A stretch of DNA of 64,000 nucleotides from an uncultured Gemmatimonadales bacterium (GCA_963798845.1 CAWCUS010000006.1:256001-320000); one strand, 5' to 3'; counted from the stretch's first letter, positions 11,872 through 38,793 are shown. Numbers and translations are program-made. The notes: generated from the letters alone by a model not told the origin.

Positions 11872-11878
11872 CGGGGCG

Positions 11879-12639: not shown

Positions 12640-13131
12640 ATGGCAGGATCGACGGTCCGTGCTTCGCCCCACCGTCCCCGCTTGCGCACGGCGGCTGCGC
12701 CGCTGTGCGTGGTCCTGGCGATCGGTGCGAGCGCGTGCGGTGGATCGTGGCACGCCACCCCCGCCGCGGAGCTGGAGGGGAACGGGATCACGAACTCGGG
12801 CGGCGCCACCGTGATCACGGCGGAGGAGCTCCATACCGCGAGCGGGTCGGTCCTGCGGGCGCTGATGGGCAAGGTCCCGAACATGAAGGTGGAGTTCATC
12901 GGCACGGACCGGTGTCCGGCGATTGCGCTCCGCCGCGCGAAGGACTTTCACGGCTTCAACTTCCCCGACGTCTACCTCGACGGCACGCGGGCGACGAACA
13001 CGTGCATTCTCGACAATCTCCCTGCGGCCGAGCTGGACCGGGTGGAGATCTATCCCCAGGGCTTCACGGTCCGCCCCGGTTACGGGACGAGCACGCACGG
13101 GCTGATTCTCCTTTTCAGTCGGACAGCGTAG
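12640..13131 (+). CDS. Small lipoprotein resembling a stand-alone TonB-dependent receptor plug domain
   Basis: SD ggagg before the ATG and lipobox ASAC. Plug-like motifs VITAEEL, VYLDG, LDRVEIY and YG...GLILL. No beta-barrel. Confidence 0.7.
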   Translation: MAGSTVRASPHRPRLRTAAAPLCVVLAIGASACGGSWHATPAAELEGNGITNSGGATVITAEELHTASGSVLRALMGKVPNMKVEFIGTDRCPAIALRRAKDFHGFNFPDVYLDGTRATNTCILDNLPAAELDRVEIYPQGFTVRPGYGTSTHGLILLFSRTA

Positions 13132-13164
13132 CGGGCGCGAGAACGCGCCGCACCCTCTTCCCGA

Positions 13165-13204
13165 GAAACCGAAACCGCCCCCCGGCGCATGGCCAGGGGG
13201 CGGT
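13165..13204 (-). terminator. Intrinsic terminator after susD (may act in both directions)
   Basis: Minus strand has a 12-bp stem, accgccccctgg / ccggggggcggt with one G-U pair, followed by ttcggtttctc. Lies between convergent genes. Confidence 0.7.
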
Positions 13205-13232
13205 CGATCAGCGGATCAGCGCTGCCCGAACG

Positions 13233-14870
13233 TCAGCAGCCGCCTCCCGGGTAGGGCGACGGATCCCACCAGACGGTCCCGCAATAATTCCCGTCGGTGT
13301 TCTGCTCGGAGATCGCCGCCTGGAGGTTGCCGTTGTTGAGCGACTGTTCCAGGCTGGGATACGGAATCCGACCAGGGATGAACTGGATCGTAGCATCCTC
13401 GGAAGGAACGATCTCGTCGGGGTAGCCGGTCCTCCGGTACTCGGAGTAGGCCTCCCACGGCATGGTGTAAAGCGCCAGCCACTTCTGGTCGATGATCTTC
13501 TCCAGGTCCGTGGTGGCGTTGCCCGTCAGGGCTACTGTCGGCTGCGCCAGGTAGGCGTCCTGGACGGCCGTGCCCAGGTCCACCGGTGCGTCCGTGGAGG
13601 CGACGGTGACGCCGTTCCACAGCTCGAACGCCTGGCGGATCCCCGCCTCGTAGTAGTCGGCCGCGCTGCCGCCGACGCTCCACCCGTTGAGGGCGGCCTC
13701 GGCCAGCAGGAAATTGACTTCCGCCGCGGTCATGATGTACTGCGGCGTGGCCGGGTCGGCTCGGAAGTGCCGACCGATCCGGGAGATGAGCGACAGCTTG
13801 GGCACGCTCCCGTTGGCGATGCCGTTCCGCTCACCGCGATACACGAACCCGTTGTACGTGACCTGGCAGGGCAGCTGCCCCGCGCCACCGCACCACGAAG
13901 CCGTGAAATCGGTGGTCTGGTCGGACGCCGGATTGGCGTACACCTCGATGCGCGGATCGTTGTACATGTCGAGGATGCCCACCAGCGTGTTGCTGACCGC
14001 GTGGTCATCCCGCGACCCACCGCCGCCCAGCGAGCCGGCAGCGTTCTCGTAGTAAGGGTTCTGATAAGGAGGCGAAGCCTGGTACACCAGCCCCGCGTTG
14101 TCATCGTTCGTGAGGATCAGCGGCTGACTGGCCACCGCCTCGACGATGCTGCGCGCGCCCGCCGGGTCCACGTCCGACATCCGCATGGCGAGCCGGAGCC
14201 GGAGCGAGTTCGCGAACTTGATCCACTGGCTCATGTCGCCGCCGTAGAACAGGTCCGCGTCCGAGAACGACCCGGCGCCCGGATTCATCATCCCGACCGC
14301 CGTCTGCAGCTCGTTCAGCAGCTGCCCGTACAGCTCCTGCTGCGGGTCGTACACCGGCGTCGTGATCGGCTCCTCCGCATCCGCCTGAAGCGCTTGCGAG
14401 TAGGGGATGTCCCCGTACAGGTCGGTCAGGATCGAAGCCGTGTACGCCTTCCCGACCATGCCCATGGCTGACTGATTGTCGCCCTTGGCCTGGTCGCCTT
14501 CCTCGGCGGTCTGCTGTCCCTTCTTGATGACCACCGCCCAGTCCTTCAGCGGACCGGCGTACACCCCGTTCCAGAGGTTGTTGATGATGGCATCACGCAG
14601 CTCGTACTGGTCCTCTTCCGTGTACTGGATCTTTGCCCAGTGCTGCACGAAGATGCCGGTCATCTCCAGCGTGATCCAGGTGTTCTGGCCCCCGAACTCC
14701 ACCGTCTGCTGGATCGCGTTCGGCAGCAGGTACTGCGCCGGCACGTCCGTCGGTGCGTTCGGGTTGTCGTTGACGTCCGCCAGCCCCTTGTCGCAGGCGC
14801 CCGTGCTGAGCGCCACGCCAAGGATCGCTGCGGCCGTTATCGTATACCGTTTCATGTTCATCCTCGTCAT
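13233..14870 (-). CDS. SusD/RagB family outer-membrane nutrient-binding lipoprotein
   Basis: Lipobox TGAC, then NDNPN, TDLYGDIPYSQA, WIKFANSLRLR, QKWLAL and EYRRTGYP. The start may be MKRYTI. Confidence 0.92.
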   Translation of the reverse strand: MTRMNMKRYTITAAAILGVALSTGACDKGLADVNDNPNAPTDVPAQYLLPNAIQQTVEFGGQNTWITLEMTGIFVQHWAKIQYTEEDQYELRDAIINNLWNGVYAGPLKDWAVVIKKGQQTAEEGDQAKGDNQSAMGMVGKAYTASILTDLYGDIPYSQALQADAEEPITTPVYDPQQELYGQLLNELQTAVGMMNPGAGSFSDADLFYGGDMSQWIKFANSLRLRLAMRMSDVDPAGARSIVEAVASQPLILTNDDNAGLVYQASPPYQNPYYENAAGSLGGGGSRDDHAVSNTLVGILDMYNDPRIEVYANPASDQTTDFTASWCGGAGQLPCQVTYNGFVYRGERNGIANGSVPKLSLISRIGRHFRADPATPQYIMTAAEVNFLLAEAALNGWSVGGSAADYYEAGIRQAFELWNGVTVASTDAPVDLGTAVQDAYLAQPTVALTGNATTDLEKIIDQKWLALYTMPWEAYSEYRRTGYPDEIVPSEDATIQFIPGRIPYPSLEQSLNNGNLQAAISEQNTDGNYCGTVWWDPSPYPGGGC

Positions 14871-14879
14871 CGGGTGCCG

Positions 14880-17800
14880 TTACGGCCGCACGGTCACGGT
14901 GAAGCCGATGCTCCGAGCCGTTGGGAACTGACCGAACTCGAGGCCCTGGACGTTGCCCGCGCTGAACGCGGTCTCCGGGTCGATGTTCGGCATGTCCGTC
15001 CACAGCGCCAGGTTTCGGCCGATCAGGGCGATGTCCGCCGAGCCGAAGCCCAGCTTGGTCACCCACGAATTCGGCAGCCGGACGCCCAGCTTCAGCTCGC
15101 GCAGCTTGACGTAGCTGGCGTCGTGGATATAAGGCTCATGGCCCGGATACGACCCCTCGAAGTAGTCCTGCGGGCACGCGGCCACCGCGTTTGCACCCGA
15201 GTTGTCCACCAGGTTGCCGTTCGCGTCGTAGTACGCCGAGTGGGGTACGACGATGCCCGGATCACACGGGCCGTTCTCACGTCCCAGGAGCGAGCCCTCG
15301 AGCACACCCGAGTACTCGCCGAACATGTTCGTCACGCTGTACACGTCACCGCCGTGCTGCATGTCGAACAGGACGCTGAGGTCGAAGCTCTTGTACGTGA
15401 ACCGGTTCAGCAGGCCGCCCGTCCAGTCCGGGTTGTAGTTGCCCAGCACCCGACGGTGCGCCGCGTCCTGCAGCGGCACGCCGCTCCCCGCGCTGACGAT
15501 CACACGTCCCTCGGGGTCGCCCACGCCGTCACCATCCAGGTCCTCGCGCAGCAGCGGAGTCCCGAACAGCGCACCGTACGGCTCGCCTTTCCGTGCCTCG
15601 ACGTTGAGCCCCCAGTACGTCCCGAGAACCAGCGTCTGCAGGTCGCCGTACAGGTCCACGACCTCGGAGTTGTTCTTGGCCCAGTTCACGGTCATGTCCC
15701 AGCGGAGCCCGTTCGGCTGCTTCACCGGCGTGAGGTTGGCCAGCAGCTCGTAGCCCCAGTTCCGGACCTCACCGGCGTTCAGCACCTGGTTGCGGTAGCC
15801 GCTCGTCGCCGAGATCTGGACCGGCATGATCTGGTTGATGGTCGTGTTGTCGTAGTACGTCAGCACGAAACCGACGCGCTCGTTGAGGAACCCGAGGTCC
15901 GTCCCCACCTCCCAAGCCGTGGTCTCCTCGGGCTTCAGCGTGGCGTTCGGCAGCGTGTTCGGCACCGAGAACAGCGGCAGGCCCCCGAACGGGTCGTTCG
16001 AGGTGAACGTGGCCAGCAGCTGGTACGGATCGGCGTCGTTGCCCACCCGCGTCCAGCTCGCCCGCAGCTTCCCGGAGGACAGCAGGCTGCTCTCGATCCC
16101 GAACGCGTCCGTGAAGACGAATGCGCCGGAAACCGACGGGTAGAAGTACGAGTTGTTGGCTTCCGGCAGCGTGCTCGACCAGTCGTTCCGGCCGGTCACG
16201 TCCAGGTTCAGGTAGTTCCGGAAGTTCAGCGTGGCCGCGCCGTAGAGGCTGTTGACCCGCTTCTTCTGGATGACGTCGTTCGTGCTCGGCGTGACGCCGG
16301 CATTGTCGAGCGTGTAGATGCCGGGGACCACCAGCTCCGACGCGCCATAGTTGGACAGGTGATACTCCTGATCCCGGCGGTTGCCGCCTGCGTTCACCGT
16401 CAGCGACAGGTCCGACGTGAGGTTCCGCGTGCCGGTGACCAGGAAGTCCGTGTTCGTCTCACGGTTGAAGATCTCGTCGTGCGCGAAGGCGCCACGCGGG
16501 TTCTCGCCGCCGTACGTGCCCCACGCGTAGTTGCGCTGACGGGACTCCTGGTACCAGTCCGTGCCGGAGCGCACCGTTGCGGTGAGCCAGTCCGTGAAGT
16601 CGTAGCTCAGCAGCGCGTGCCCGAGCACGTGGTCCGTCACGGCGTCGTTCGTGTTCTCGTACGCCTCGACATACGGATTGTCGTGGTACGAGTAGTTCCA
16701 GTTGTAGTAGTCGTTGCCCAGCACGCAGCCGGGACGCGTATCGCCCGCCACGCACTTGTAGTTGGACAGGGAGGCCACGTCGACCTGCCGACCGAACCAG
16801 ATGAACTGCTGCATCACGTTCGTGCCGGTGTAGCCCGTCGCTGGCAGGTTCGCCACGTCGTTCTTCATGTAGTCGATGGCACCCTCGGCCCGCATCCGGT
16901 CGGTGACATCCAGCCCGCCGGCCAGTGAGGCGCCGAGCCGATTGATCTCGTTGTTCGGGTACATGCCGTTCTGCTGCATGTTGGTCACGGATAGACGCAC
17001 GTTGCTCCGCTCGTCGCTGCGCGCGATCGCCACGTTCGTGTTCACCGTCACACCCGTCTCGAAGAAGTCACGGACGTTGTTCGGGTGCGGGCACCACGGC
17101 TGGTTCTTCCCGCTGAACTGGTCCACCAGCGTGTCACAGCTCAGCGCCGGGCCCCAGCTCTCGTCCATGCCGTCCGCCACGCCGCCCCAGTTGCCGTCCA
17201 CCCATTCGAACTGGCCGCTCGAGCCCTGGCCGTACTTGTTCTGGTAGTCCGGCAGGCGCAGCGGCGTGTCGAACATGGTCGACACGGTGGCGCTGATCCC
17301 GAGACCGGCACCGTGATAGCCCTTCTTCGTCGTGATGACCACGGCGCCGTTCGCGGCCCGCGAGCCATAGAGCGCAGCGGCGTTCGGGCCCTTCAGCACC
17401 GAGATCGACTCGATGTTGTTCGGATCGAGGTCGCCCGCACGGTTGGCGTAATTGTAGCCGCCACCCGTCGCGTTGCTGCTGCCGTTGTTCGAACTCGAGC
17501 TGTTGTCGATCGGGATGCCATCGACCACGAACAGCGGCTGGTTGTTGCCGTTGATCGAGCTCGCGCCGCGGATCACGATGCGCGACGCGCCGCCCGGGCC
17601 GGCCGTGTTCGTGATGTGCACCCCCGCCACGTTGCCGTGCAGGGCGTCCACCACGTTCAGCTTCGGCACTTCCGAAATCTGCTCCGCGCTCACGTCCTGC
17701 ACGGAGTAGCCGAGGCTGCGCTTCTCGCGCTGAATCCCCAGCGCCGTCACCGTGATGCCTTCGAGGCCGATCGCTTCACGGCTCATCGTCACGTTGACCA

Positions 17801-18074
17801 CCGGACCGGTGATCTCGCGCTCCATCGTGCGATAACCGAGATAGCTGAAGACCAGCTCGCCGGAACCCGCGGGGACGCGAACGGCGAAATTGCCGTTCCC
17901 GTCTGACAGCGTGCCTACCGTGGTACCCTTCACCACGATCTGCACGCCCGCGAGCGGCTGCCCCGAGTCCTCGGCCGTCACCTGGCCGGTCACCCGGTTT
18001 TCCTGGGCGCTCAGCCACGTCGGCACTGCGAGCAGTGCCGCGATGGCGAGAGTCCGCCGCAGCTTGGAATACAT
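14880..18074 (-). CDS. SusC/RagA family TonB-dependent outer-membrane transporter
   Basis: N-terminal carboxypeptidase-regulatory-like domain, plug motifs PLFVVDG and LKGPNAAALYGSRAANG, then RNDWSSTL and YFYPSVS. Start MYSKLRR has SD ggagga. Confidence 0.95.
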   Translation of the reverse strand: MYSKLRRTLAIAALLAVPTWLSAQENRVTGQVTAEDSGQPLAGVQIVVKGTTVGTLSDGNGNFAVRVPAGSGELVFSYLGYRTMEREITGPVVNVTMSREAIGLEGITVTALGIQREKRSLGYSVQDVSAEQISEVPKLNVVDALHGNVAGVHITNTAGPGGASRIVIRGASSINGNNQPLFVVDGIPIDNSSSSNNGSSNATGGGYNYANRAGDLDPNNIESISVLKGPNAAALYGSRAANGAVVITTKKGYHGAGLGISATVSTMFDTPLRLPDYQNKYGQGSSGQFEWVDGNWGGVADGMDESWGPALSCDTLVDQFSGKNQPWCPHPNNVRDFFETGVTVNTNVAIARSDERSNVRLSVTNMQQNGMYPNNEINRLGASLAGGLDVTDRMRAEGAIDYMKNDVANLPATGYTGTNVMQQFIWFGRQVDVASLSNYKCVAGDTRPGCVLGNDYYNWNYSYHDNPYVEAYENTNDAVTDHVLGHALLSYDFTDWLTATVRSGTDWYQESRQRNYAWGTYGGENPRGAFAHDEIFNRETNTDFLVTGTRNLTSDLSLTVNAGGNRRDQEYHLSNYGASELVVPGIYTLDNAGVTPSTNDVIQKKRVNSLYGAATLNFRNYLNLDVTGRNDWSSTLPEANNSYFYPSVSGAFVFTDAFGIESSLLSSGKLRASWTRVGNDADPYQLLATFTSNDPFGGLPLFSVPNTLPNATLKPEETTAWEVGTDLGFLNERVGFVLTYYDNTTINQIMPVQISATSGYRNQVLNAGEVRNWGYELLANLTPVKQPNGLRWDMTVNWAKNNSEVVDLYGDLQTLVLGTYWGLNVEARKGEPYGALFGTPLLREDLDGDGVGDPEGRVIVSAGSGVPLQDAAHRRVLGNYNPDWTGGLLNRFTYKSFDLSVLFDMQHGGDVYSVTNMFGEYSGVLEGSLLGRENGPCDPGIVVPHSAYYDANGNLVDNSGANAVAACPQDYFEGSYPGHEPYIHDASYVKLRELKLGVRLPNSWVTKLGFGSADIALIGRNLALWTDMPNIDPETAFSAGNVQGLEFGQFPTARSIGFTVTVRP

Positions 18075-18383
18075 AAGTCCTCCAGGGAAAGGAAACTCGT
18101 TTGGAGAGGCGGCTTCTGCTTCCGACTCCTGCGGGAGACCCCGACTCCCGGCGATCGAATCGTCGACACGCGCCGCCCCGGGCGGTCTCGATTCGGATTC
18201 CGGACGCCACCGGCAATGCCTCCGGGTGCGGGTGTTCGGTGGGACACCCTTCGGTCGCCCGCTCCTGCAGTGGCAGCTGCTCGTGGAACGGTGTCGGCGC
18301 GGTTCCTTTGGGGAGGCTCGATCGAGATCGAGCCCTTTCAACATGGGGTTTGGTAGCGCTCCGGCCCTGGCGACCTCCTTGCT

Positions 18384-19730
18384 CTAGAGCCTGTGGCCCG
18401 GTCCGGGCCCGATGTCGAGGCGTGCCAATGCACGCCCGGGTCGTTCAACACGGGAGTTAAGCCGCCGCACGCTCGAAGTCAAGGCCCTGATGAGATTTCC
18501 GGGCTCGTCGTCCCGGGGCTGCGGAGGCTGCCTGCGCTCCTCCACCGGCAGCGCCGATCCGACAGCCACACCGGGCCAGCCCCATAGCAGCAGAGCGGCG
18601 ACCAGCGGTGGCCCGGCGACGGCGGCCAGCGCCGGCGCCGGGCGCGCCAGCGGGCGGGCGGACGCCCCGTGGGGAAGGACCAGCAGCAGCAGCACCAGGG
18701 CGACGGCGACGCCGCCGAGCAGCCACCCCGCGGCGATGCTCCCGGCCGCCAGCGGTGCCCCGGGGGCGGACGACAGCCGGTACGCGCCCGCGACTCCCAC
18801 GAAGAGTGCGAGCCCCAGGCTGGTCGCCGCTCCCGACCTCCGCCCGCGCGCGGGCTCCAGCACCCGTCCGATCAGCGAAAGCGCCGCTGCATGGCCTGCG
18901 GCGAGCGCCGCCGCCCCGGCCCAGCCGGCGCCGCCCGAGAGCAGACCGGCGGCCACGACCCCGGCGAGCCCCACCGCCACCCATCTCCTGCCGGCGGTAC
19001 CGGGCCAGCCCAGCAGACCCGCCAGGGCGACGCCGCCGCCCACCGCCACCGTCATGGCCGAGAACGCGAACGGCGCCCCCGAACGGGCGACCACGGCCGC
19101 AGGGGCGCCGAGCACATAGAGGTCGAGGAAGAGGATCAGGCCGAGCGCCAGTGCCCCCCGGCGCCTCACCCCGCCCGCCCGGCGCTCGAGGCCACGGACG
19201 CCGGCGGGCGGGTCGACCGCGCGGGCGCTCGCGCCGGCGAGCGCGAGCAGCATGAGCGAAAGCGCCACCTGCGCCGGCACCCATCCGGGTGTCAGCGATA
19301 CGTCGGCCCCACCGCCCGCCACCCGGAGCAGCCCGTCAGCGACCAGCCCCGTCGCGGCCCCGGCCGCGACGCCCCGTGCGTCCAGCCGGCCGACACCCCA
19401 GGCGAGGAACAGCCCTGCGAATGCGAGCACGAGCGCGGATCCGCCCAGTCTCGTGGCCACATCGGGGTGCGACATCGGGAGCCGGAAGATCGCGACCCCG
19501 GCCGCGCTCACGGCGACCGCGCCCCCGCGTTCCAGCCATCGGCGCAGAGGGAGCAGCGGCACGAGAAGCGCCAGCAGCGGCGTCACGGCGAGAAGAAGGC
19601 GCCATGGCGATAAGGGGGGAGCCGCGGCGTCGCCCGCGACGTCGAGGAGGGAGGGGAAGAAGGCGCGCTGCGCTTCCGCGAGAAAAAGGAACACGAGCGC
19701 CGCCACGGCGAACGATCGGACCGCGCGCAC
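18384..19730 (-). CDS. Hypothetical polytopic membrane protein
   Basis: More than 10 hydrophobic segments. Starts 17 nt after the kinase stop. Confidence 0.7.
   Translation of the reverse strand: MRAVRSFAVAALVFLFLAEAQRAFFPSLLDVAGDAAAPPLSPWRLLLAVTPLLALLVPLLPLRRWLERGGAVAVSAAGVAIFRLPMSHPDVATRLGGSALVLAFAGLFLAWGVGRLDARGVAAGAATGLVADGLLRVAGGGADVSLTPGWVPAQVALSLMLLALAGASARAVDPPAGVRGLERRAGGVRRRGALALGLILFLDLYVLGAPAAVVARSGAPFAFSAMTVAVGGGVALAGLLGWPGTAGRRWVAVGLAGVVAAGLLSGGAGWAGAAALAAGHAAALSLIGRVLEPARGRRSGAATSLGLALFVGVAGAYRLSSAPGAPLAAGSIAAGWLLGGVAVALVLLLLVLPHGASARPLARPAPALAAVAGPPLVAALLLWGWPGVAVGSALPVEERRQPPQPRDDEPGNLIRALTSSVRRLNSRVERPGRALARLDIGPGPGHRL
18454..18482 (-). promoter_or_regulatory. Possible sigma70-type promoter for susCD
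   Basis: Minus strand TTGACT-17 nt-TAACTC in an AT-richer patch. The -10 match is imperfect. Confidence 0.35.
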
Positions 19731-19747
19731 CGGGTCGGCCGGCCCGG

Positions 19748-21904
19748 TCAGTCGGCCGGGGTTGCGGTCTTCCCTCCGCGGCCTTCCGCCCCCGCGGCGG
19801 CCCGAGGGGCGAGCGCCCGCTTCACCGGCTCACCCCGGGTTCCGGGGTTCAGGCGTACGGGCAGCTCCACCGTGAACCGCGTGCCTTTCCCGTAGGTGCT
19901 CTCCACGGTGATCCCACCCCCGAGCAGGGCGATGAGCTTGCGCGTGATGGACAGGCCCAGCCCCGTCCCGCCGTACTCGCGCGTTGGAGTCTGGTCCACC
20001 TGCCGGAAGTCGTCGAAGATCGCCTCCAGGTCCTTCTCCTTGATCCCGATGCCCGTGTCCTCCACGACGATCCGGACCCGCTCTGCAGCCGCCTGGTTCA
20101 CGATCACGGTCACGTGCCCCCGGGCCGTGAACTTGATGGCGTTCGACAGCAGGTTGAGGAGGATCTGCTTCACCTTCGTGCGGTCGGTGAACAGCGTCGT
20201 CAGCCCGGTATCGCCCTCGACCGTGAACGCCAGCCCCTTCTCCCGCACCAGCGGCTCCACCGCCTCGGAAAGCTCGCCCAGCATCTGCCGCAGCGACACT
20301 TCCTCCAGGTACACCGGCATCTTCCCGGCTTCGATCTTCGACAGATCCAGGATGTCGTTGATCAGGTCCAGCAGGTGCTGCGACGCGGTGTTGATCTTGT
20401 CCAGCCCGCTCCGCTGCTTGTCGGTGAGCTCACCGTAGATCTCCTCGCGCATGAGCGAGGTGTAGCCCAGCACGGCGTTGATCGGCGTGCGCAGCTCATG
20501 GCTCATGCTGGCGAGGAACTCGCTCTTCAGCCGCGACGCCCTCTCCAGCTCCTGGCTCTGCCACTCCAGGCGCCGGTTGCGCTCCTCCAGCTCCAGGGTC
20601 GCGGTGCGGACCCGGTCCTCCAGCCCTTCGTTGAGCTCCCGCAGCTCACGGGCGAGGCGCTCGTTCTCGACGACCTGGGCCAGATCGTGAATGACGCTCA
20701 CGATGGCGGACGGCTCGCCGCGGGCGTTCAGGATCTTGCTGCTCACCACCTCCACCGGGAACTCGGACCCCCGTTCCGGCTCGTGCAGCTCGAACTTGGC
20801 CACCCGCCTCGCCTCCGGCTGCAACAGGAAGTCGCTGATCAGGCTCGTGAACTTCGTGTCGTTCGCCCGGACGGCGCGCCGGCGAGCCGAATCCGCACCG
20901 GCCGCGGCGGGGGCCTCGAACAGGCGCTCCGCCTCCCGGTTCATCAGGATGATGTTCGACCGCTCATCCGTGACCAGGATCGGGTCGCCCACGTTCTCCA
21001 GAGTAGCATTCAGCCGCTCCCACTCCTCGCGAACCCGCTCCTCGGCGACCCGCGACCGCCGGAACTGCGTCTCGAGCTCCGTGAGCGCTCGCTTCAGGTC
21101 GGTGATGTCGCGCAGGATCGACAGCACGCTACCCTGCGGCCCGGTTTCGGGAACCGGCGTCGGCAGCACCTCGAACAGGAGGTCGGAGCCGTCGCCCGGG
21201 TCCACCAGGTTGAGCTCCCGCGGCTGCCCCTGGTGCGCGCTGATCACCAGCTGCGTCAGCATGGAGCTGAACAGGAGGTTGTTCAGCTGCACCGCCCTGC
21301 GGCGCCCTTCGTTGTCCGACGGAGAGGTCGAGAAGAGCTGATCGGCACGGTCGTTGGCAAGCACGATGTTGTTCCTGCCATCCGTCAGCACCACCGGGTC
21401 CGGCAGGCTGTTCACGATGCTCGTGAGCATCTCCCGCTCCCGCGACGACCGGTCCGCCCGGCGCTGCAGATCCCGCACCGCCCGAGTCTTCTCCAGGATC
21501 GGCAGGTAGCGCCCGAATACGTCTTCGATCGCCGCCAGCGCCTTCCGGTCCACCCCGTACTCCAGCACGACCGCCCCCCATGCCGCCTCGCCCCGCTCGC
21601 ACAGGGGGAGCACCTGGAGATCCGCCGTGTCCTCGGCAAGCGCCGGGATCCGCGCCTGTTCCCCGCTGCGCAGCGCGTCCCCCAGCGGCGAGTCCTCATG
21701 CGACGCCGCCTCTCGCACTCGCCTCTGCAGGCGCTCCGGCAGACCCATGCCTACGACATCGTACCGCCCCCCTTCACTGTAGACCACCAGCCCGCCGCCC
21801 AGCTGGCTCGCGCCCAGCGCGCGCTCCAGGACCAGGGAGAGCGCCTCGGCCGGCCCCTCGGAGCGGGCCAGACGTTCACTGAGCTCGGATGTGGCGATTT
21901 CCAT
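19748..21904 (-). CDS. Soluble sensor histidine kinase (GAF-like N-terminus, two PAS-like domains, HisKA, HATPase)
   Basis: H-box FLASMSHELRTPINA, N-box QILLNLLSNAIKFT, G-boxes DTGIGI and GGTGLGL. PAS-like repeats LPDPVVLTD and VGDPILVTD. No TM segment and no receiver domain. Confidence 0.93.
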   Translation of the reverse strand: MEIATSELSERLARSEGPAEALSLVLERALGASQLGGGLVVYSEGGRYDVVGMGLPERLQRRVREAASHEDSPLGDALRSGEQARIPALAEDTADLQVLPLCERGEAAWGAVVLEYGVDRKALAAIEDVFGRYLPILEKTRAVRDLQRRADRSSREREMLTSIVNSLPDPVVLTDGRNNIVLANDRADQLFSTSPSDNEGRRRAVQLNNLLFSSMLTQLVISAHQGQPRELNLVDPGDGSDLLFEVLPTPVPETGPQGSVLSILRDITDLKRALTELETQFRRSRVAEERVREEWERLNATLENVGDPILVTDERSNIILMNREAERLFEAPAAAGADSARRRAVRANDTKFTSLISDFLLQPEARRVAKFELHEPERGSEFPVEVVSSKILNARGEPSAIVSVIHDLAQVVENERLARELRELNEGLEDRVRTATLELEERNRRLEWQSQELERASRLKSEFLASMSHELRTPINAVLGYTSLMREEIYGELTDKQRSGLDKINTASQHLLDLINDILDLSKIEAGKMPVYLEEVSLRQMLGELSEAVEPLVREKGLAFTVEGDTGLTTLFTDRTKVKQILLNLLSNAIKFTARGHVTVIVNQAAAERVRIVVEDTGIGIKEKDLEAIFDDFRQVDQTPTREYGGTGLGLSITRKLIALLGGGITVESTYGKGTRFTVELPVRLNPGTRGEPVKRALAPRAAAGAEGRGGKTATPAD

Positions 21905-21918
21905 GACAACGGCGGGCC

Positions 21919-22218
21919 CTACTCCACCTGCTCGAGCCGGCGTCGCAGTTCCAGGTTTTCGGCTCGCATCCGCTCCAGCTCCGTCTGCTCGCCACTGGTG
22001 AGCGCCTGGGGGCGGGCGACGGTGGGGAGGACCCCGACGGCCTCAGCGTACTTCAGGTATGTGTCGATCGCCGCGACCACGATCCTGGCTTCCACGGTGA
22101 CCAGATCGATCCCGACGAGCGAGACGCGGACGTAGGCGTCGATGACGATGCCCTTGTCCAGGACCCGATCGAGGACGTCGATGAGGCTGGTTCCAGCGGG
22201 AGCCCTTTCAACCGCCAT
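21919..22218 (-). CDS. gvpA: Gas vesicle structural protein GvpA with C-terminal coiled-coil extension
   Basis: [52 protein letters not shown]. Confidence 0.93.
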
Positions 22219-22556
22219 TATTGCCCCTCTCCGGAGTGGGGGAATGCGTCCTTCCGCAACTGCTGACGCTCCAGTGTCTGCAATCTTCGTGACAGGTCAT
22301 CCAGCTTGTGGGCAAGCGTGCCATCGCCGCTGGCGTGTGTGGACAGCCTCGGGTCGGTCTTCCACCAGTCCATGCCGATCTCCTCGGCCTTGTCCAGGGA
22401 GCACACGAGGAGGCGGATCTGGATGGTGAGCAGCTCGACGTCGGCGAGGCGGATGCGGATGTCGCCGGCGATCATGAGCCCCTTGTCCAGGACGCGGTCG
22501 AGCACATCGACCAGGCCCTGAGAGCGCTGCGGCCCCAATTCGTAGTGCTCCGCCAA
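22218..22556 (-). CDS. gvpJ: Gas vesicle protein GvpJ (GvpA family)
   Basis: [54 protein letters not shown] start. Confidence 0.88.
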
Positions 22557-22577
22557 TTGGACCTTTCCCGGTTGCGG

Positions 22578-22937
22578 TCAGACCAGTCGGCCCAGCGGAC
22601 CGAGGTCGATGTTCAGATCCTCTTTCGCGATCCCGAAGGCTGCGCGGATATCGTCCAGTCGCTCTTCCAGCCGCATGAGTGCGAGGCCGAGCCGCTCCGC
22701 CTCCTCGTCCGACAACGATCCCCCTTCCAACCGGCGCACGGCCTGGTGCTCCAGCATCTGCCGTATGAATTCGACGAGCGTGAGGACCAGCTTGCCCACG
22801 CCTGCCTCGATGTCGTCGGGCGATGCGTCGAGGCGTGACGGGAGACGCGGCGCCACCTCGCGGAGCTCGGCGGCGAGGCGCTCGAGCTCGGCGACGTGCG
22901 CGCCTCCAGCATGCTCCACCCGCTCGTCACAGCTCAT
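22578..22937 (-). CDS. gvpK: Gas vesicle protein GvpK
   Basis: GKLVLTLVEFIRQMLEHQAVRR...ERLGLALMRL...DLNIDLGPLG. The ATG at 22937 overlaps the upstream stop (ATGA). Confidence 0.92.
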   Translation of the reverse strand: MSCDERVEHAGGAHVAELERLAAELREVAPRLPSRLDASPDDIEAGVGKLVLTLVEFIRQMLEHQAVRRLEGGSLSDEEAERLGLALMRLEERLDDIRAAFGIAKEDLNIDLGPLGRLV

Positions 22938-23614
22938 ACAGCGAACCCGTAGGGCGGCCAGGGACCCGAAAATAGGAATCGGAGCTCCGGGTGCTGCGAA
23001 GGGAACTGCCGAATCCGCCGCTGGTAGGTGCCAGTATCGTGCCGGTCTACCAGGTGAGCGACGGAAGCCAGCGTGGAATCGCCGCCCGGGTCGACCCGCT
23101 GGTCCCTGGCGAGCGGCCCCAACCACGCGCGCATGGCCTCCGCCATATCGGCGCCCTGCCGTGCGCGTGCCCGCTCCGCTCGCCCGCGCCGGGAGAGGCC
23201 TTCGAGGTACGCCTTTCCGCTGCTTCGGTCGGGCTCGGCGGCGGCTGCGGCGGGGTCGAGGATGCGAGTCCCGAACTCGACGGCTCCCAGCACGTGTCGC
23301 AGCGACAGCTCCAGCGGAGCACGCCGCGCTGCAATCAATGCTTCCAGGGCCGACCAGCAGTCGAACCACTGACCGAATCGCATCGGAAGGGGCGTCCGGG
23401 ACCGGGTGGCGGCTCCGAGCACGGCGTTGTGGGTCCGGAGTGCCTCGAGAGAGGGGTGCGGCGCCCCGCGGCTCTCGGAAACCCAGGCAGTGAAGCCCTG
23501 CACGGGGACGGAGCGCACCGGAGCGCCGGCCAGTCCTGTGACGGCAGAAGGCTCGGGATGGTCGGCGGCGCCGAGGCAGTATAGGTAGACGGCACCGGCC
23601 AGCCGCGTCCTCAT
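22934..23614 (-). CDS. GvpL/GvpF family gas vesicle protein
   Basis: Motifs YLYCL, HNAVL, LPMRFG, GKAYL and SGPWPPYGF. Confidence 0.88.
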   Translation of the reverse strand: MRTRLAGAVYLYCLGAADHPEPSAVTGLAGAPVRSVPVQGFTAWVSESRGAPHPSLEALRTHNAVLGAATRSRTPLPMRFGQWFDCWSALEALIAARRAPLELSLRHVLGAVEFGTRILDPAAAAAEPDRSSGKAYLEGLSRRGRAERARARQGADMAEAMRAWLGPLARDQRVDPGGDSTLASVAHLVDRHDTGTYQRRIRQFPSQHPELRFLFSGPWPPYGFAV

Positions 23615-23874
23615 CCGGCGACGTCTTCTCCCGCGGGTCCGGCGGGGGACCGCGCACCGTTCCGCTCCCCTGCCAGCAGCGGCAGCCCGCCGCTTCTCCG
23701 CTCCAGCGCTTCCACCCCGCTCAGCAGGAGCCTCAGCTCCAGGTAGATCAGGTCGATCCCGGCCACGCCGATGGTGACGTCACCGCGCAGCACGACGCCA
23801 CGGTCCAGGACACGATCGACCAGCTCCACCAGGCGCAGCCGCTCGTCTGCTTCGAGCGGGGCGTCCTCACGCAC
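23611..23874 (-). CDS. GvpS/GvpM-like gas vesicle protein (GvpA family)
   Basis: LVELVDRVLDRGVVLRGDVTIGVAGIDLIYLELRLLL. Confidence 0.85.
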   Translation of the reverse strand: MREDAPLEADERLRLVELVDRVLDRGVVLRGDVTIGVAGIDLIYLELRLLLSGVEALERRSGGLPLLAGERNGARSPAGPAGEDVAG

Positions 23875-24652
23875 CGGGCGCCTCCAGGAAGCGGTACGGC
23901 GCCCAGGGGCCGGTGACGTCGACCGTCAGTCCGAGCGACTTCGCCCGCTCCGTCTCCTTGCGTGCGCGGTCGCGGAACGCCGCCTCCCGGCCGCGAGCCA
24001 CCAGGAAGGCCGCACTCGCCAGCACGGGCGCTGTCGACGGCGGCACGACGTGGCGCGCGTCCTCGGCCAGCCGCTCGAGTGAAGCCACCAGCTCCTGCGC
24101 GAGCCGCCGTGCGGCGGCTCGTCCCTCCCGCCTCGCCACGTCCGCGCGCTTCTTCCGCAGGAGGAACTGCTTCCCCGGCTTGGCCGCCTCGATCTCCTCG
24201 TCGAGGGCGGCTACCTCGTCCGAGATTTCCGCCAGGTGCCGATCCAGGGCCTCCGCGTCGTAGCCGACCTTCATGTCCCACTCGCGGGTGTCGGAAAACC
24301 GCTCGAGCTCGCGCTCGATCCGTCCCGCGTCGCGAGCGGCGGCTTCCAGGAGCTTCGCCTGGGAGCTGAAGAGGTTCACCACCCGGGACGGGAGGATCGA
24401 AGCGTGATCCACGAACCACGCGACGGTCTCCTCGTGGTGCAGCCCCAGCTCCGCCATCCACTCCACGTCGGCGCAGTGCCGCTCCAACCGCTCGCCCGTG
24501 AACTCCTCGGGGTCCACCCGCGAGATCACGGCACGGAAGGGCAGCCGGTCCGCGCCCGTCAGCTCCACCTCCGTGTCGCCGACGCCGAGCAGCCCGCCCG
24601 TGGGGAGCCTCGCCTCCGTGGGGACGAAGCCGTACAGGTAGATTGGGCTCAT
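23867..24652 (-). CDS. GvpL/GvpF family gas vesicle protein
   Basis: Motifs IYLYGFV, HEETV, EWDMKV, PGKQFL and TGPWAPYRF. Confidence 0.88.
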   Translation of the reverse strand: MSPIYLYGFVPTEARLPTGGLLGVGDTEVELTGADRLPFRAVISRVDPEEFTGERLERHCADVEWMAELGLHHEETVAWFVDHASILPSRVVNLFSSQAKLLEAAARDAGRIERELERFSDTREWDMKVGYDAEALDRHLAEISDEVAALDEEIEAAKPGKQFLLRKKRADVARREGRAAARRLAQELVASLERLAEDARHVVPPSTAPVLASAAFLVARGREAAFRDRARKETERAKSLGLTVDVTGPWAPYRFLEAPGA

Positions 24653-24704
24653 CCGACCCCCGTCCCGCGGGCCTCGCGCACGCCCGCACGCACGCCATTA
24701 CCCG

Positions 24705-25115
24705 TCATCCGTCATCGAATCCGAGCCTGAGGTCCACTTCGGCATCCCGGGCCGTGGCGACGTCGGGCGCCTCCTGTTCCTCGACCGTTTCCTGCTCCGC
24801 CTCCGCCGACGCTTCCGCCGACCCGCCAGCCCCTACCACGCGAACGGGTCCGCCCGACGTCGGCATCCCGTACTGCTGGCGCCACGCCCGGACCTCACGC
24901 AACCTCCGCATGAGCTCCGCCTCCGCGGCCGCGTACGTCTCCTCGTCCACCTCCCCCAGCTCCAGCGCCATCTGCAACTCCATCAGCTCCCGCTTCACAG
25001 CCAGGTCGTCCGTCAGGTCGGTGCGCACGGCCTCCTGCACCTTCTCCAGGGAGAAGCGAGTCAGGAACGACGGCCCCGTCACAGGCCAGAAGAGCAGGTG
25101 CTTGAAGAGCCCCAC
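24705..25115 (-). CDS. gvpG: Gas vesicle protein GvpG with acidic tail
   Basis: LLFWPVTG...ELMELQMALELGEVDEETYAAAEAELMRRL. Confidence 0.85.
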   Translation of the reverse strand: MGLFKHLLFWPVTGPSFLTRFSLEKVQEAVRTDLTDDLAVKRELMELQMALELGEVDEETYAAAEAELMRRLREVRAWRQQYGMPTSGGPVRVVGAGGSAEASAEAEQETVEEQEAPDVATARDAEVDLRLGFDDG

Positions 25116-25116
25116 G

Positions 25117-25932
25117 TCAGGTCCCGGCGCGCTCGAGCTTGAGCTTGATGTTCACGAAGTTGTACGGCGGCCAGGGGCCGGTGTACTTGAACGACAGCAA
25201 CTCCTCGTATTTCCGTGAGAGCGACTTCACAGCCTCGTCGAACTCCTCTTCCCTGGTCCGGACCACGAGGTAGGCGGCGTTGAGGATCATGCGATCGCCA
25301 ATCGGCTTGTTCGACCGGCTCGCGATGGCGAACGGCTTCAGCGACTGGTGGACATCCATCACGTAGCCGTTCGCCGCCTCCTCCAACCCGCTCTCCACAA
25401 GTCGCCCCAGCTGCATGCGGGCAAAATACGTCGAGCTCTGCTCGTTCTCGGTGATCTCCCGCTTCAGCCGGTGGATCTCCTCGTCCTCCTCTTCCAGGCG
25501 GCGCGCGACCTGGTCCCGGTCCCACAGGACCTTCAGGCCGAATTCGATCTTGTCCCGCATCTTGTCGAGCACGTCGTCGAACGCGCGGTACGTCGATTTG
25601 AGCAGCTCAACGATGTCGTCATGCGTCCGGAAGATGGTCCCGAACGACATCGGGATGACGGTGAACTCGCGCATCACAGACTCGTTCACCAGCTCGTGCG
25701 CCAGCACGTTCTCCCGCGTGGGATCGTAGATCCGGATCGGCGTGTCGCTCACCACCGCGGCGAGGTCCTGGAAATGCACGGTGTAAACGCGGCTCGAATC
25801 GCCCCCGATGCCGATCGCGCCGAAGTCCCGGGGTTCGCTCGTCTTGATGATGCAGTAGACGTACTTCCCTTCATCGGTGGCGGGATTCCGGTCGCCACCG
25901 ACCGGGTCGTACGGATGTCCGTCGTCTGGCAT
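25117..25932 (-). CDS. gvpF: Gas vesicle protein GvpF (GvpL/F family), first gene of the operon
   Basis: Motifs GKYVYCII, LAAVVSD, AHELVNE, VIPMSFGT, IEFGLKV and YTGPWPPYNFV. Start at MPDDGH (ATG 25932); the longer track ORF is run-on. Confidence 0.9.
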   Translation of the reverse strand: MPDDGHPYDPVGGDRNPATDEGKYVYCIIKTSEPRDFGAIGIGGDSSRVYTVHFQDLAAVVSDTPIRIYDPTRENVLAHELVNESVMREFTVIPMSFGTIFRTHDDIVELLKSTYRAFDDVLDKMRDKIEFGLKVLWDRDQVARRLEEEDEEIHRLKREITENEQSSTYFARMQLGRLVESGLEEAANGYVMDVHQSLKPFAIASRSNKPIGDRMILNAAYLVVRTREEEFDEAVKSLSRKYEELLSFKYTGPWPPYNFVNIKLKLERAGT

Positions 25933-26034
25933 GGCTGCGCCCGATTCGGAGCTGAGAAGTTGCCTTTTCACCCGAGCGGAAGTCACACAGGAGCCGGCGC
26001 CGCTCGGCTCGGGGTCGCGCTGGCGCCGTGTTGA

Positions 26035-26050
26035 TGCCAGCTTCGTGCCG
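26035..26050 (-). promoter_or_regulatory. Putative sigma54 (-24/-12) promoter of the gvp operon
   Basis: Minus strand CGGCACGAAGCTGGCA, which is GG-N10-GC with a GGCACG core, about 100 nt upstream of gvpF. Confidence 0.6.
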
Positions 26051-26201
26051 GACCCGCGACGCCGCCGTCCGGGCAAGCGCCGCCCCCGCGGTCCGCTGCG
26101 GCTCCGGTGTTCTGAACCGGCGCGCCCCTTGCGGTGCGCCCGGGCGAGGTCGGTCGAGAGCCGGGCGGCTCGGCATGCCCAGATACAGTGACCACAGACC
26201 C

Positions 26202-27113
26202 ATGTTGCGCACGTACGTCGTTCTCCTCGCGCTGGCGCTGCCGGCAGTGGCCTGCTCCCCGGTGCGAACCAAGGTACCGGAGAAGCCCGCTGCGGCGGCC
26301 CGGCTCGATCGCGGGCTCGCGGCCCTGAGCGAGCACCGATACCCGGACGCCTTCCAGGACCTGGCCTGGGTGTACGCCCACTGCCCTGGCCATGTGGCCG
26401 GATACCGTGCGGCCAGCGCCATGGCCGCACTGGAGCTGGACCCGCGCAACCCTGTGGGCCGACCGGCGGTCGGCACGGAGCTGCTGGGCGGGCTCCTCCG
26501 GTCCCCGGGAGTCCCCGCGTGGGAGCGGCCCCTCTCGGAGACCGGCTACCTGCTGGCCCTCGCCCTCGGCGCACCACCCGCACCGCAACCCGACGCCGGA
26601 ATGGCGGGACGCCCGGAGCAGCCGACCTCCGACCTGCCGGCGGGCGAGCCGGCGCAGAGGCCCGGCGGCCAGCACCCGCCCAGCGAGCCCGAGCCGGACA
26701 GCGGGCTCGTCCGCCCGGTCGCGCCGGACAGCGGGCTCGTCCGCCCCGTCGCGCCGGACACCGGCCTCGCTCGGCCGGCGGTTCAGGACAGCGCCACTCT
26801 CGCCGCACCCGGCGACACCGCGCCCGCCTCCGTCCGCGTGAGCGACGTCGGTCGCGTGAGCGACGTCGGTCGCGCGAGCGACGTCGGGGCCGGGCCCATC
26901 GCGGAGCCCGTGGAAGGGTGCGGCGAAGCGATCAGCGCGGAGGGATGGTCATCTCCACCGCTCCCCCGCCTTCCGGGTCCATCGCTGGCCGCGCTCGTGG
27001 CGCAGGTGGAAGCGCGCCGGGACACGCTCGCCGAGCAGCTGCGCATCACGCAGATGCAGCTCGACTCGGTTCGGGGCGAGCTCGAGCGCATTCGCAAGAC
27101 GCTGAAGCCATAG
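26202..27113 (+). CDS. Hypothetical lipoprotein with helical N-domain, Pro-rich repeat linker and C-terminal coiled coil
   Basis: Signal peptide with lipobox AVAC. C-terminus LAEQLRITQMQLDSVRGELERIRKTLKP. Ends 4 nt before the kinase. Confidence 0.75.
   Translation: MLRTYVVLLALALPAVACSPVRTKVPEKPAAAARLDRGLAALSEHRYPDAFQDLAWVYAHCPGHVAGYRAASAMAALELDPRNPVGRPAVGTELLGGLLRSPGVPAWERPLSETGYLLALALGAPPAPQPDAGMAGRPEQPTSDLPAGEPAQRPGGQHPPSEPEPDSGLVRPVAPDSGLVRPVAPDTGLARPAVQDSATLAAPGDTAPASVRVSDVGRVSDVGRASDVGAGPIAEPVEGCGEAISAEGWSSPPLPRLPGPSLAALVAQVEARRDTLAEQLRITQMQLDSVRGELERIRKTLKP
26693..26782 (+). repeat. 30-bp coding tandem repeat x3 (PDSGLVRPVA)
   Basis: gccggacagcgggctcgtccgcc(c/g)gtcgc twice, then a degenerate third copy. 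Confidence 0.85.
26835..26888 (+). repeat. 18-bp coding tandem repeat x3 (RVSDVG)
   Basis: cgcgtgagcgacgtcggt twice, then cgcgcgagcgacgtcggg. Confidence 0.85.
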
Positions 27114-27117
27114 CTCC

Positions 27118-28569
27118 ATGACCGTTCGGGCCCGGCTCCTCGTCACCATCAGCGGGATCATCCTCCTCCTGGTCCTCCCCGCCCTCTACGGCATCACGCA
27201 GCTCCGTCGGGTCCGGGCCATCGCGGAGGGGCTGGAGGAGGTGCATGCCGACGACGTCCTCACGCTCGGCAACCTGCGCGAGGAGTTCGCCGAGCTCGAC
27301 CGTCTCCTGCGCAGCTACGTGGTCGAGCCTGCCGCCGAGTACCGCCAGTCGGCGGAGACGGATATCGCGGCTGCCCGGGGCAACCTGCGCCGCCTGTCCC
27401 GGTCCGGCCTGGACGGCGAGGTCTCCGTTTCTCGCGCCCAGCTCGATTCGCTCGCCACCGCCACCGCCCGCCTCGAGGAGCTCATGGGCAGCGACCGCCG
27501 CGACGAGGCCACGTCCTACCTGCTGAACGACGTACGCCCCCTCCTCGACGGGCTCCGGCACTCCCTCACGGCAGTGGCGAGCGCGCTGGACGAGCGTGGC
27601 AAACAGGCCGTGCAGGAGGCGCAGGTCGTGAGCGCCGCGGCGACGCGAACCACCATGCTCGTGGTCACGATCGCACTCTTCCTGACGATCATCCTCGGGC
27701 TCTGGACGACGGACGCCCTCTCGCGTCCGCTGCGGCGCCTTTCCGAGGCCACGGCCTCCGTCGCCGCCGGGGACTTCAAGGCGCCGCCGCACCTGGCCTA
27801 CGAGCGGTCGGACGAGATCGGCCATCTTTCCCGCTCCTTCGCGCTCATGACCGAGCAGCTGAGCGAGCTCGACCGTCTCAAGGCCGAGTTCGTCGGCCTC
27901 GCCACCCATGAGCTCAAGACACCGATCAACGTCATCATGGGGTACGCCGAGCTCATGGACGAAGGCGTCTACGGTGACCTGCCCGATCGGCAGCGGGAAG
28001 TCACCCGGCTCATCCACGAGCAGGCCCGCTCCCTTACCCGCCTGGTCAATCAGCTCCTCGACCTCTCCCGCTTCGAAGCCGGCGGGCTCAAGATGGAGCC
28101 CAATCCGATGGAGCTCGCCGGCCTTCTCACCGATGTCGAGGCTGCGTTCCGGGCGCTCGCCACACAGAAGCGCATCCAGTTCGATGTCCGCAGCGAGGAC
28201 TCCGCCCCGCACATCGTCAGCCTCGACCGCGACCGCATTCGCCATGAGGTCCTCGGAAACCTCCTCTCGAACGCGTTCAAGTTCACCGACACGGGCGGTG
28301 AGATCAGCCTGCGAGCATGGGGCGAGGACGGGAACGTCGGGCTGGAGGTGAGCGACACGGGTGCCGGGATCCCGCAGGATCAGCTGCAGCACGTGTTCGA
28401 CAAGTACTACCAGGTGGGCGCGGAGGCCAAGGCACAGGGGAGCGGCCTGGGGCTCGCCATCGCCAAACAGGTGGTGGAAGCCCACCACGGAACCATCTCC
28501 GCCACCAGCACCGTCGGACGAGGGACCACGTTCCGCATCACGCTTCCGGCCGGCTCGGCGGAGGGATGA
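27118..28569 (+). CDS. Membrane HAMP-domain sensor histidine kinase
   Basis: Two TM segments flanking a helical periplasmic domain. HAMP (RPLRRL...DEIGHL), then HELKTPIN, NLLSNAFKFT and GSGLGL. Confidence 0.93.
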   Translation: MTVRARLLVTISGIILLLVLPALYGITQLRRVRAIAEGLEEVHADDVLTLGNLREEFAELDRLLRSYVVEPAAEYRQSAETDIAAARGNLRRLSRSGLDGEVSVSRAQLDSLATATARLEELMGSDRRDEATSYLLNDVRPLLDGLRHSLTAVASALDERGKQAVQEAQVVSAAATRTTMLVVTIALFLTIILGLWTTDALSRPLRRLSEATASVAAGDFKAPPHLAYERSDEIGHLSRSFALMTEQLSELDRLKAEFVGLATHELKTPINVIMGYAELMDEGVYGDLPDRQREVTRLIHEQARSLTRLVNQLLDLSRFEAGGLKMEPNPMELAGLLTDVEAAFRALATQKRIQFDVRSEDSAPHIVSLDRDRIRHEVLGNLLSNAFKFTDTGGEISLRAWGEDGNVGLEVSDTGAGIPQDQLQHVFDKYYQVGAEAKAQGSGLGLAIAKQVVEAHHGTISATSTVGRGTTFRITLPAGSAEG

Positions 28570-33590: not shown

Positions 33591-33596
33591 GGGCCC

Positions 33597-38779: not shown

Positions 38780-38793
38780 GGGCGTCGATCAGG

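Follow-up and report, generated by a model that had tools for sequence, protein, structure and literature searches.

A compact Gemmatimonadota gas-vesicle gene cluster with a soluble histidine kinase gene conserved behind gvpA

Introduction

We analysed a window of 64,000 nucleotides (nt) from an uncultured Gemmatimonadales bacterium (GCA_963798845.1, CAWCUS010000006.1:256001-320000), in which eight gas-vesicle (gvp) genes are followed, just past gvpA, by the gene of a soluble histidine kinase (HK). A preliminary description of this DNA had proposed that the Gvp proteins form a small scaffold coupled to the kinase instead of flotation vesicles. The reading that we favour, with somewhat better than even confidence, is a functioning Gemmatimonadota-type gas-vesicle operon (gvpF-G-L-S-L-K-J-A) with a dedicated, co-transcribed regulatory kinase as its fixed last member. 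The linkage between gvpA and the kinase was conserved in 27 of 28 gvpK-positive genomes and at 62 of 64 assessable kinase loci, and because this pairing has been kept across the phylum the kinase most likely controls gas vesicles. As a dedicated regulator would also show conserved linkage, the linkage does not favour the scaffold proposal, for which we found no direct support; a complete set of genes and a GvpA of canonical type speak for real shells.

Results

Layout of the gvp operon and its kinase gene

Genes were called in the window (G+C about 70%) by combining third-position G+C with open reading frame (ORF) structure. Eight intact gvp genes (F, G, L/F, S-like, L/F, K, J, A) occupy the minus strand at 21919-25932, in the order previously given for them, and all of them matched their Pfam families far above the curated cut-offs and over nearly the full length. 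They belong to a run of twelve consecutive minus-strand genes, from gvpF1 to a SusD-like gene, with intergenic gaps of 52 nt or less:

25117-25932, minus: gvpF1, first operon gene, 271 amino acids (aa); Pfam GvpL_GvpF, E 1.4e-77, full length
24705-25115, minus: gvpG, 136 aa; Pfam GvpG, E 3e-15
23867-24652, minus: gvpL2, second GvpL/F-family gene, 261 aa; Pfam GvpL_GvpF, E 7e-43
23611-23874, minus: gvpS/M-like small GvpA-family gene, 87 aa; Pfam Gas_vesicle, E 3e-15
22934-23614, minus: gvpL3, third GvpL/F-family gene, 226 aa; Pfam GvpL_GvpF, E 1.6e-39
22578-22937, minus: gvpK, 119 aa; Pfam GvpK, E 7e-33; start codon ATG at 22937, in a 4-nt overlap with the end of gvpL3
22218-22556, minus: gvpJ, 112 aa; Pfam Gas_vesicle, E 1e-15
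21919-22218, minus: gvpA, shell protein, last gvp gene, 99 aa; Pfam Gas_vesicle (PF00741), E 5e-16
19748-21904, minus: HK, soluble histidine kinase, 718 aa, GAF-like/PAS/PAS/HisKA/HATPase_c; Pfam
18384-19730, minus: polytopic membrane protein, possibly the last gene of the transcript, 448 aa; translation, no Pfam match
14880-18344, minus: SusC-like receptor; Pfam
13233-14870, minus: SusD-like lipoprotein; Pfam

Inside the cluster the gaps measure 1 nt (F-G), 52 nt (G-L2), -8 nt (L2-S), -4 nt (S-L3), -4 nt (L3-K), 21 nt (K-J) and -1 nt (J-A). Recalculation reproduced exactly the reported distances of 14 nt from gvpA to HK and 17 nt from HK to the membrane-protein gene, and a further 39 nt separate the latter from the SusC-like gene. 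Position 26050, at which the preliminary description had ended the set, lies in upstream intergenic DNA and is not the end of a gene. The tally of families above cut-off was three matches to PF06386, one to PF05120, one to PF05121 and three to PF00741 (gvpA and two further paralogues). All three Gas_vesicle matches of the whole genome fall within the cluster, so gvpA is indeed single and the last of the gvp genes. The most conserved gvp gene was gvpF1, with 78% mean column identity over 26 sequences, versus 24–47% identity for the other two L/F paralogues. A simple sigma-70 promoter and terminator scan of positions 13000-27300 was uninformative (0 promoters; 4 terminator-like sites versus 4.1 expected).

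Conservation of the gvpA-kinase linkage

The linkage was surveyed in both directions. In the forward survey, the window proteins were mapped onto the neighbourhoods of 27 other gvpK-positive genomes, two of which (G097 and G157) are flagged as unpublished. In the reverse survey, an alignment of 25 HK sensor regions (A1) was run against species-representative genomes and the best 80 of 531 relatives were taken; 79 passed the filter as kinases and 64, with at least 1500 nt of upstream DNA, were assessable. The related loci came from Gemmatimonadota metagenome-assembled genomes (MAGs; Longimicrobiales, Longimicrobiaceae, Gemmatimonadaceae and Gemmatimonadales), one contig being labelled Acidimicrobiaceae. 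Since the genomes are related and not independent, all counts of linkage and co-occurrence are descriptive and not statistics.

In 26 of the 27 related genomes the gene next after gvpA encodes an HK orthologue (44–63% identity); with the window's own genome the count is 27 of 28. The exception (G040) carries a kinase of 36% identity upstream of gvpF. Among the best 80 of 531 relatives, gvpA stood immediately upstream of HK on the same strand at 62 of the 64 assessable loci, 60 of which also contained gvpK; the remaining two were a gvpF-HK pair (L093) and a locus with no gvp gene (L137). In most relatives the kinase ORF opens just past the gvpA stop. Clustering of the ORFs of 62 long loci recovered HK in 61, GvpF/L in 57, GvpA/J/S in 53, GvpG in 51 and GvpK in 32, the last figure being limited by the ORF filter.

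Such counts could also arise if the kinase were a mere conserved neighbour with an unrelated target, its position after gvpA being inherited gene order. Other neighbours are conserved too, among them the housekeeping genes purA (43 of the 62 long loci) and glyS (36), besides ArsA (30) and DUF456 (25); moreover, HK paralogues occur away from gvp (G271:C5 and G171:C142), and HK was retained after gvp loss in several lineages. We nevertheless regard this explanation as very improbable. The kinase gene lies 14 nt after gvpA here and at an estimated 15–253 nt (median 167 nt), on the same strand, at the 62 loci; it remains beside gvpA even in a rearranged cluster (J-A-HK-F-L-J-L-K, in G217), and it stays with gvpF in two-gene loci at another chromosomal site, beside priA. 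Furthermore, the HK sensor region (E<=1e-10) was present in 27 of 28 gvpK-positive versus 7 of 373 gvpK-negative genomes.

The membrane-protein gene, which had been described together with the cluster and the kinase gene, was kept only in close kin (L039, L075, L076); it is lineage-specific and lies outside the conserved unit. Its product had no Pfam match, and the ESM Atlas gave only unnamed clusters for it.

Can the gene set build vesicles?

Residues 1-70 of GvpA matched A. flos-aquae GvpA (8GBS; phmmer E 3e-24), with about 45 of 70 residues identical (about 64%, counted from the alignment), and B. megaterium GvpB (7R1C; E 4e-22); by this likeness, GvpA here is a canonical shell protein. In Serratia, GvpA1, GvpA2 (GvpS-like) and GvpA3 (GvpJ-like) are all essential and three GvpF variants are called essential, GvrA, GvrB and GvrC are likewise essential, and gvpG and gvpK mutants are among the complementation analyses named in supporting figure legends (PMC4982088). 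The family make-up of the window cluster, with three GvpA-family and three GvpF/L-family genes, GvpG and GvpK, is that of the Serratia non-regulatory essential families. Because these families are matched and GvpA shares about 64% of its aligned residues with a shell protein of known structure, a real gas-vesicle operon is the best reading, and shell formation is likely. The same essential families and canonical GvpA, together with the precedents in print, make an ordinary regulatory role the simpler reading for the kinase.

GvpN, GvpO and GvpC, earlier noted as not recognisable in the window, were not found by profile search in the whole genome either (4.26 Mb in 6 contigs, 96.3% complete). 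The best match to the GvpN model (TIGR02640) reached 35 bits against a cut-off of 266.8, and this weak signal was of the generic AAA+ kind that 13 of the 14 control genomes, which have no gas vesicles, showed as well. GvpO (PF05800) gave no match in the genome. As positive controls, the GvpN and GvpO searches each rose over the cut-off in 2 of 2 annotated records, Octadecabacter pOA238_160 and Halobacterium pNRC100. The GvpC repeat (PF01304) also had no match in the genome, in a search that had no positive control, as nothing rang in any control genome; GvpC proteins are diverse. GvpN and GvpO genes elsewhere in the genome had been named beforehand as a finding that would speak against the scaffold proposal, and none was found; the other sign named, a gvpA-kinase linkage that is not conserved, did not turn up either. 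GvpK was present in 28 of 401 sampled Gemmatimonadota genomes, and GvpN at E<=1e-20 in 0 of the 401 (6 first-look candidates scored per genome), from which the absence of GvpN appears as a trait of this lineage's cluster type and not an assembly gap.

These absences could mean that the cluster is cryptic, that is, conserved but forming no gas-filled vesicles as GvpN, GvpC and GvpO are missing; its proteins would then serve some other purpose or no purpose at all, a view that has been put forward for Streptomyces coelicolor. GvpN is named as conserved in all gvp clusters and GvpO as essential in Halobacterium (PMC9501494), no vesicles were seen in S. coelicolor, which has no gvpN (PMC4982088), and the ArsA-type double ATPase found in about half of the relatives' clusters is absent from the window cluster. 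However, none of the eight ORFs is disrupted, they have been retained in different families of a class, and GvpA is close to proven shell formers. Furthermore, gvpN mutants elsewhere still form bicones: Serratia gvpN or gvpV mutants make small ones (PMC4982088), and Haloferax transformants without gvpN have tiny vesicles, the proteins essential there being GvpF, G, J, K, L, M and O (PMC9501494). The Anabaena and Bacillus megaterium clusters, as given in PMC9501494, also have no gvpO, and vesicles were discovered in Streptomyces sp. CB03234-S, as cited in a review (PMC7376271). A cryptic cluster therefore seems to us quite unlikely. To our knowledge, the CB03234-S cluster has no gvpN either. 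In a functioning operon, the eight Gvp proteins would nucleate and build the GvpA shell, and without GvpN and GvpC the product would probably be small or bicone-like vesicles, by analogy with the mutants above.

Reduced loci, loss of gvp genes and the kinase tree

Gene context was compared for the seven gvpK-negative genomes that have the sensor region and for kinase copies not linked to a full cluster, and several relatives proved to carry the kinase with few or no gvp genes. One genome (G188, L066/L086; 97% complete) has gvpF-gvpA-HK only, with one Gas_vesicle match, one GvpL_GvpF match and no GvpK, and a second MAG (L087) shows the same three-gene layout. A gvpF-HK pair beside priA was found at L093, with a 17-nt gap, and in G337 (L072 = G337:C9), where it occurs besides a main cluster that has its own kinase copy and no gvpF1. 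In G218 (L068 = G218:C21), the kinase ORF (6319-8742, minus) starts with about 45 GvpF residues fused in frame to the kinase N-terminus; we take this fusion for the scar of an in-frame deletion of the entire gvp cluster, which other members of the genus keep. Finally, no gvp gene lies near the kinase in G168, G089, G106, G273, G271:C5 and L137, and no Gas_vesicle-domain gene was found genome-wide in G168, G089, G106 and G218. The kinase can exist without Gvp proteins.

In a maximum-likelihood tree of 33 kinases, including one from an unpublished genome (G157), the gvp-less kinases nest inside gvp-linked groups, and at least four changes of linkage label are needed. Two of them (L067 and L068) lie very close to gvp-linked sisters, which indicates recent gvp loss. 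Others sit on long branches (L069, 1.41; the L070/L071 stem, 1.46; L073, 2.24), and their placements are unsure. The pattern suggests repeated gvp loss followed by short-term retention or rapid divergence of the kinase, which fits a kinase mainly tied to gvp.

The reduced loci bear on a further explanation, in which the kinase reads the state of Gvp assembly. GvpF and/or GvpA, or the vesicle surface, would bind the sensor domains, making Gvp proteins a part of the sensor, and vesicle build-up, collapse (by pressure or turgor) or the levels of free GvpA or GvpF would lead to phosphorylation. The reduced loci keep exactly these partners, as gvpF-gvpA-HK (G188, L087) or gvpF-HK (L093, L072), and GvpF1 is unusually conserved among the L/F paralogues. 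In Halobacterium, moreover, GvpF is the only accessory protein reported to bind GvpA (PMC9501494), and HK here has no adjacent regulator and is placed after the last structural gene. We consider both the binding and the signal that it would produce unlikely, given that HK is intact in G168, G089, G106 and L137, where the neighbourhood and, in the genomes searched as a whole, the rest of the DNA hold no gvp gene, that the reduced loci are equally readable as operon decay, for which the G218 scar offers a parallel, and that the full eight-gene set and canonical GvpA argue for normal shells. A complex prediction for GvpF1 and HK residues 1-450 (score 0.00 against a mark of 0.32, controls not folded) speaks neither for nor against binding.

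That GvpF, GvpA and the kinase make up a signalling unit of their own, with a small GvpA/GvpF assembly or the vesicle surface as the kinase input, is in our view distinctly improbable. Such a unit would report vesicle integrity, turgor or hydrostatic pressure and could survive as gvpF-gvpA-HK or gvpF-HK without the other vesicle machinery; gas-vesicle proteins would then be part of a sensory device as well as of a buoyancy organelle. A sensing role for Gvp proteins is kept alive, at low probability, by the reduced loci and the conservation of GvpF1.

The window's own genome encodes a fourth, stand-alone GvpL/F-family protein of 221 aa outside the window (G000:C1:518425-519090; L162:7425-8090, minus). 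It matches PF06386 in two pieces (72.8 and 51.7 bits), and its gene lies directly upstream of priA, after deacetylase-like and peptidase-like genes. Similar weak GvpL/F matches occur in G106, G218 and G168, and as these genomes have no Gas_vesicle-domain genes, the paralogue seems unrelated to vesicles.

Architecture of the kinase

As described earlier, the kinase is soluble: two PAS domains, HisKA (75.6 bits) and HATPase_c (107.4 bits) were recognized by Pfam, and no transmembrane segment is present. The H-box SHELRTP is conserved among HK orthologues. With A1 as the input alignment, AlphaFold modelled residues 1-450 at a mean pLDDT of 84 (pTM 0.45). The predicted chain begins with an alpha/beta domain of GAF-like type (about 1-115), which a long helix connects to PAS1 (171-266); another helix joins PAS1 to PAS2 (309-407), and a last one runs on into the phospho-acceptor domain. 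Both PAS domains have a long conserved Arg/Asn-rich helix, for which the A1 consensus reads DSEGRRRAVEINNLLF and VRxNDTKFTxFISDF. Foldseek searches with the sensor model returned tandem-PAS sensors only (DosP, PpsR, LOV-HK, FixL, NifL and MmoS) at 13–18% identity. The modelled fold would place the sensor in a class of oxygen, redox and light sensors, from which no cofactor can be inferred, and A1 contains no invariant His or Cys in the PAS cores that would mark a haem or LOV site.

A putative regulatory circuit

Under the favoured reading, the soluble GAF-like/PAS/PAS kinase would sense a cytoplasmic cue and phosphorylate a response regulator encoded elsewhere, which would in turn set gvp transcription. 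As the kinase is presumably co-transcribed with the gvp genes, such a circuit would feed back on itself. GvrB of Serratia is NtrB-like. The Serratia cluster encodes GvrA, GvrB and GvrC, and its gvpA1 promoter is of the sigma-54 type (PMC4982088). A similar scheme, in which a kinase acts through an NtrC-type activator on a sigma-54 promoter, is plausible here by analogy, though unproven; the genome itself contains rpoN and 18 strong sigma-54 activator genes. One candidate element was found upstream of gvpF:

26035-26050, minus: candidate sigma-54-like -24/-12 element CGGCAC-N5-TGGCA (CGGCACGAAGCTGGCA), about 103 nt upstream of the gvpF1 start, with two mismatches

This site, a possible promoter comparable to the one that serves Serratia gvpA1 with GvrA and GvrB, lies within a gap of about 265 nt before a divergent lipoprotein gene and a HAMP kinase gene. 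Of the relatives for which upstream DNA is available, the two closest (L075 and L077) keep the block, while its flanks diverge. Sites with at least 8 of 11 positions and with GG and GC intact were found in 31 of 74 gvpF upstream regions of relatives, versus 5.2 expected from random 300-nt pieces of the same loci and 9 on the reverse complement.

A number of observations weigh against a functioning operon under the control of this kinase. No response regulator was found near the cluster, either in the window operon or in the 62 long loci. An NtrC-type regulator encoded in the window (37466-38788; REC, AAA+, HTH_8) was considered as a partner dedicated to gvp and rejected, its orthologues (about 56–72% identity) being present in 400 of 401 genomes and so not specific to gvp. 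Two-mismatch matches to the sigma-54 element numbered 16 in the window versus 16.5 expected, which is chance level, and in the closest relative (L075) the -12 GC reads TC. Among sequencing runs matching 18384-26050 there was no RNA run, the matches being four DNA runs of one study (shares 0.05–0.26). The kinship among the genomes means that the counts overstate the support for linkage, and the kinases kept after gvp loss (L067, L137, L068) may have other targets. Finally, GvpO, essential in Halobacterium (PMC9501494), is missing here, and a literature search found no report of gas vesicles in Gemmatimonadota.

Other genes in the window

Divergent from gvpF1, on the plus strand at 26200-27113, is a lipoprotein-like gene with short tandem repeats (VRPVAPDSGL three times, and VSDVGR repeats), which is followed by the HAMP histidine kinase gene (27118-28569); both lie beside the cluster only in the closest relatives. 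On the other side, 39 nt past the membrane-protein gene, a SusC-like TonB-dependent receptor (CarboxypepD_reg, Plug and barrel) and a SusD-like lipoprotein are encoded at 13233-18344, minus. As this pair is absent in G380 between the kinase region and the cytochrome/molybdopterin genes, it looks like a lineage insertion. At 8647-12436, minus, a gene for a large molybdopterin/4Fe-4S oxidoreductase with a TAT signal stands beside a multihaem cytochrome c7-like gene, a pair that presumably resembles alternative complex III. Also on the minus strand, at 31012-33596, are genes for a LuxC-like acyl-CoA reductase (E 6e-80) and a weak LuxE-like acyl-protein synthetase.

Discussion

Research on gas vesicles treats them as organelles of buoyancy and as acoustic reporter genes; it has yet to settle which of the gvp genes are indispensable and by what means bacteria that are not planktonic control their vesicles. 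The eight genes described here, without GvpN and GvpO and apparently without GvpC, are one of the most compact natural gvp sets, and because the shell protein is canonical they would offer a clean test of vesicle formation without GvpN. A kinase fixed behind gvpA across a largely uncultured phylum points to an unstudied one-gene control module, and whether Gvp proteins act in signalling as well can be approached directly through the reduced gvpF-gvpA-HK and gvpF-HK loci.

Kinase and activator genes inside gvp clusters (in Serratia), gvpN-less actinomycete clusters and ArsA genes in gvp operons are already in print. The preliminary description had suspected that gvp clusters near kinases were already noted in other lineages, and GvrB of Serratia is such a case (PMC4982088). 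We found no literature on Gemmatimonadota gvp genes or on a PAS kinase fixed behind gvpA in a search by title and abstract, with subscription journals and bioRxiv supplements outside its reach. New here are the counts for the phylum Gemmatimonadota, the patterns of gvp loss and the reduced loci.

In comparison with Serratia (PMC4982088), the window cluster shares three GvpA-family and three GvpF-family genes, GvpG, GvpK and a kinase gene inside the gvp cluster. Serratia has further proteins, among them GvpN, GvpC and GvpV, and beside the kinase it encodes GvrC and GvrA, the latter its NtrC-like activator, whereas the window cluster has no GvpN or GvpV, no recognisable GvpC and no regulator in it or near it, and its GAF-like/PAS/PAS kinase follows gvpA directly. 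A sigma-54 promoter drives gvp in Serratia, whereas the sigma-54-like element here is only a candidate.

The S. coelicolor cluster (gvpOAFG-JLSK; PMC9501494, PMC4982088) likewise belongs to a non-planktonic host, has no gvpN (nor gvpC, which seems to be absent here too) and contains the families F, G, J, L, S, K and A. However, the actinomycete cluster opens with gvpO-gvpA, whereas here gvpA is last and GvpO is absent; its GvpA is described as divergent (PMC4982088), in contrast to the canonical GvpA of the window; and the available text of PMC9501494 gives no kinase for it, whereas one is present here.

With the p-vac/pNRC100 cluster of Halobacterium salinarum (gvpACNO / gvpDEFGHIJKLM) the window cluster shares A, F, G, J, K, L and M(S), which are essential there (PMC9501494). 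Regulation by GvpD and GvpE and the proteins GvpN, O, C, H and I belong to Halobacterium, and none of these is found here. In the pNRC100 record (NC_001869.1; L164, 1-2692), genes for a ParA-family protein and a large 'PAS domain S-box protein' lie just past gvpO, which loosely recalls, in an archaeon, the placing of a PAS sensor next to a gvp cluster.

Within the Gemmatimonadota, about half of the relatives carry an additional gene for a two-domain ATPase of the ArsA type (about 600 aa), placed after gvpG and before the following gvpL/F gene; it was present at 11 of 27 loci as judged by spacing and at 30 of the 62 long loci (Pfam ArsA_ATPase, E 6e-61 and 2e-65; for example L039:6358-8175 and L057:12150-13868). 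No ArsA gene is present in the window cluster, where 52 nt separate gvpG from gvpL2, and the rest of the genome gave only weak ArsA-like matches; the window cluster is the leanest form among its relatives. Castillo and Saier (2010, PMC2963123) reported that arsA homologues occur within the gvp operons of four phyla; one of their examples is an acidobacterial cluster that also holds L/F, J, K and M. The accessible part of that account mentions no kinase, whereas the Gemmatimonadota clusters carry one.

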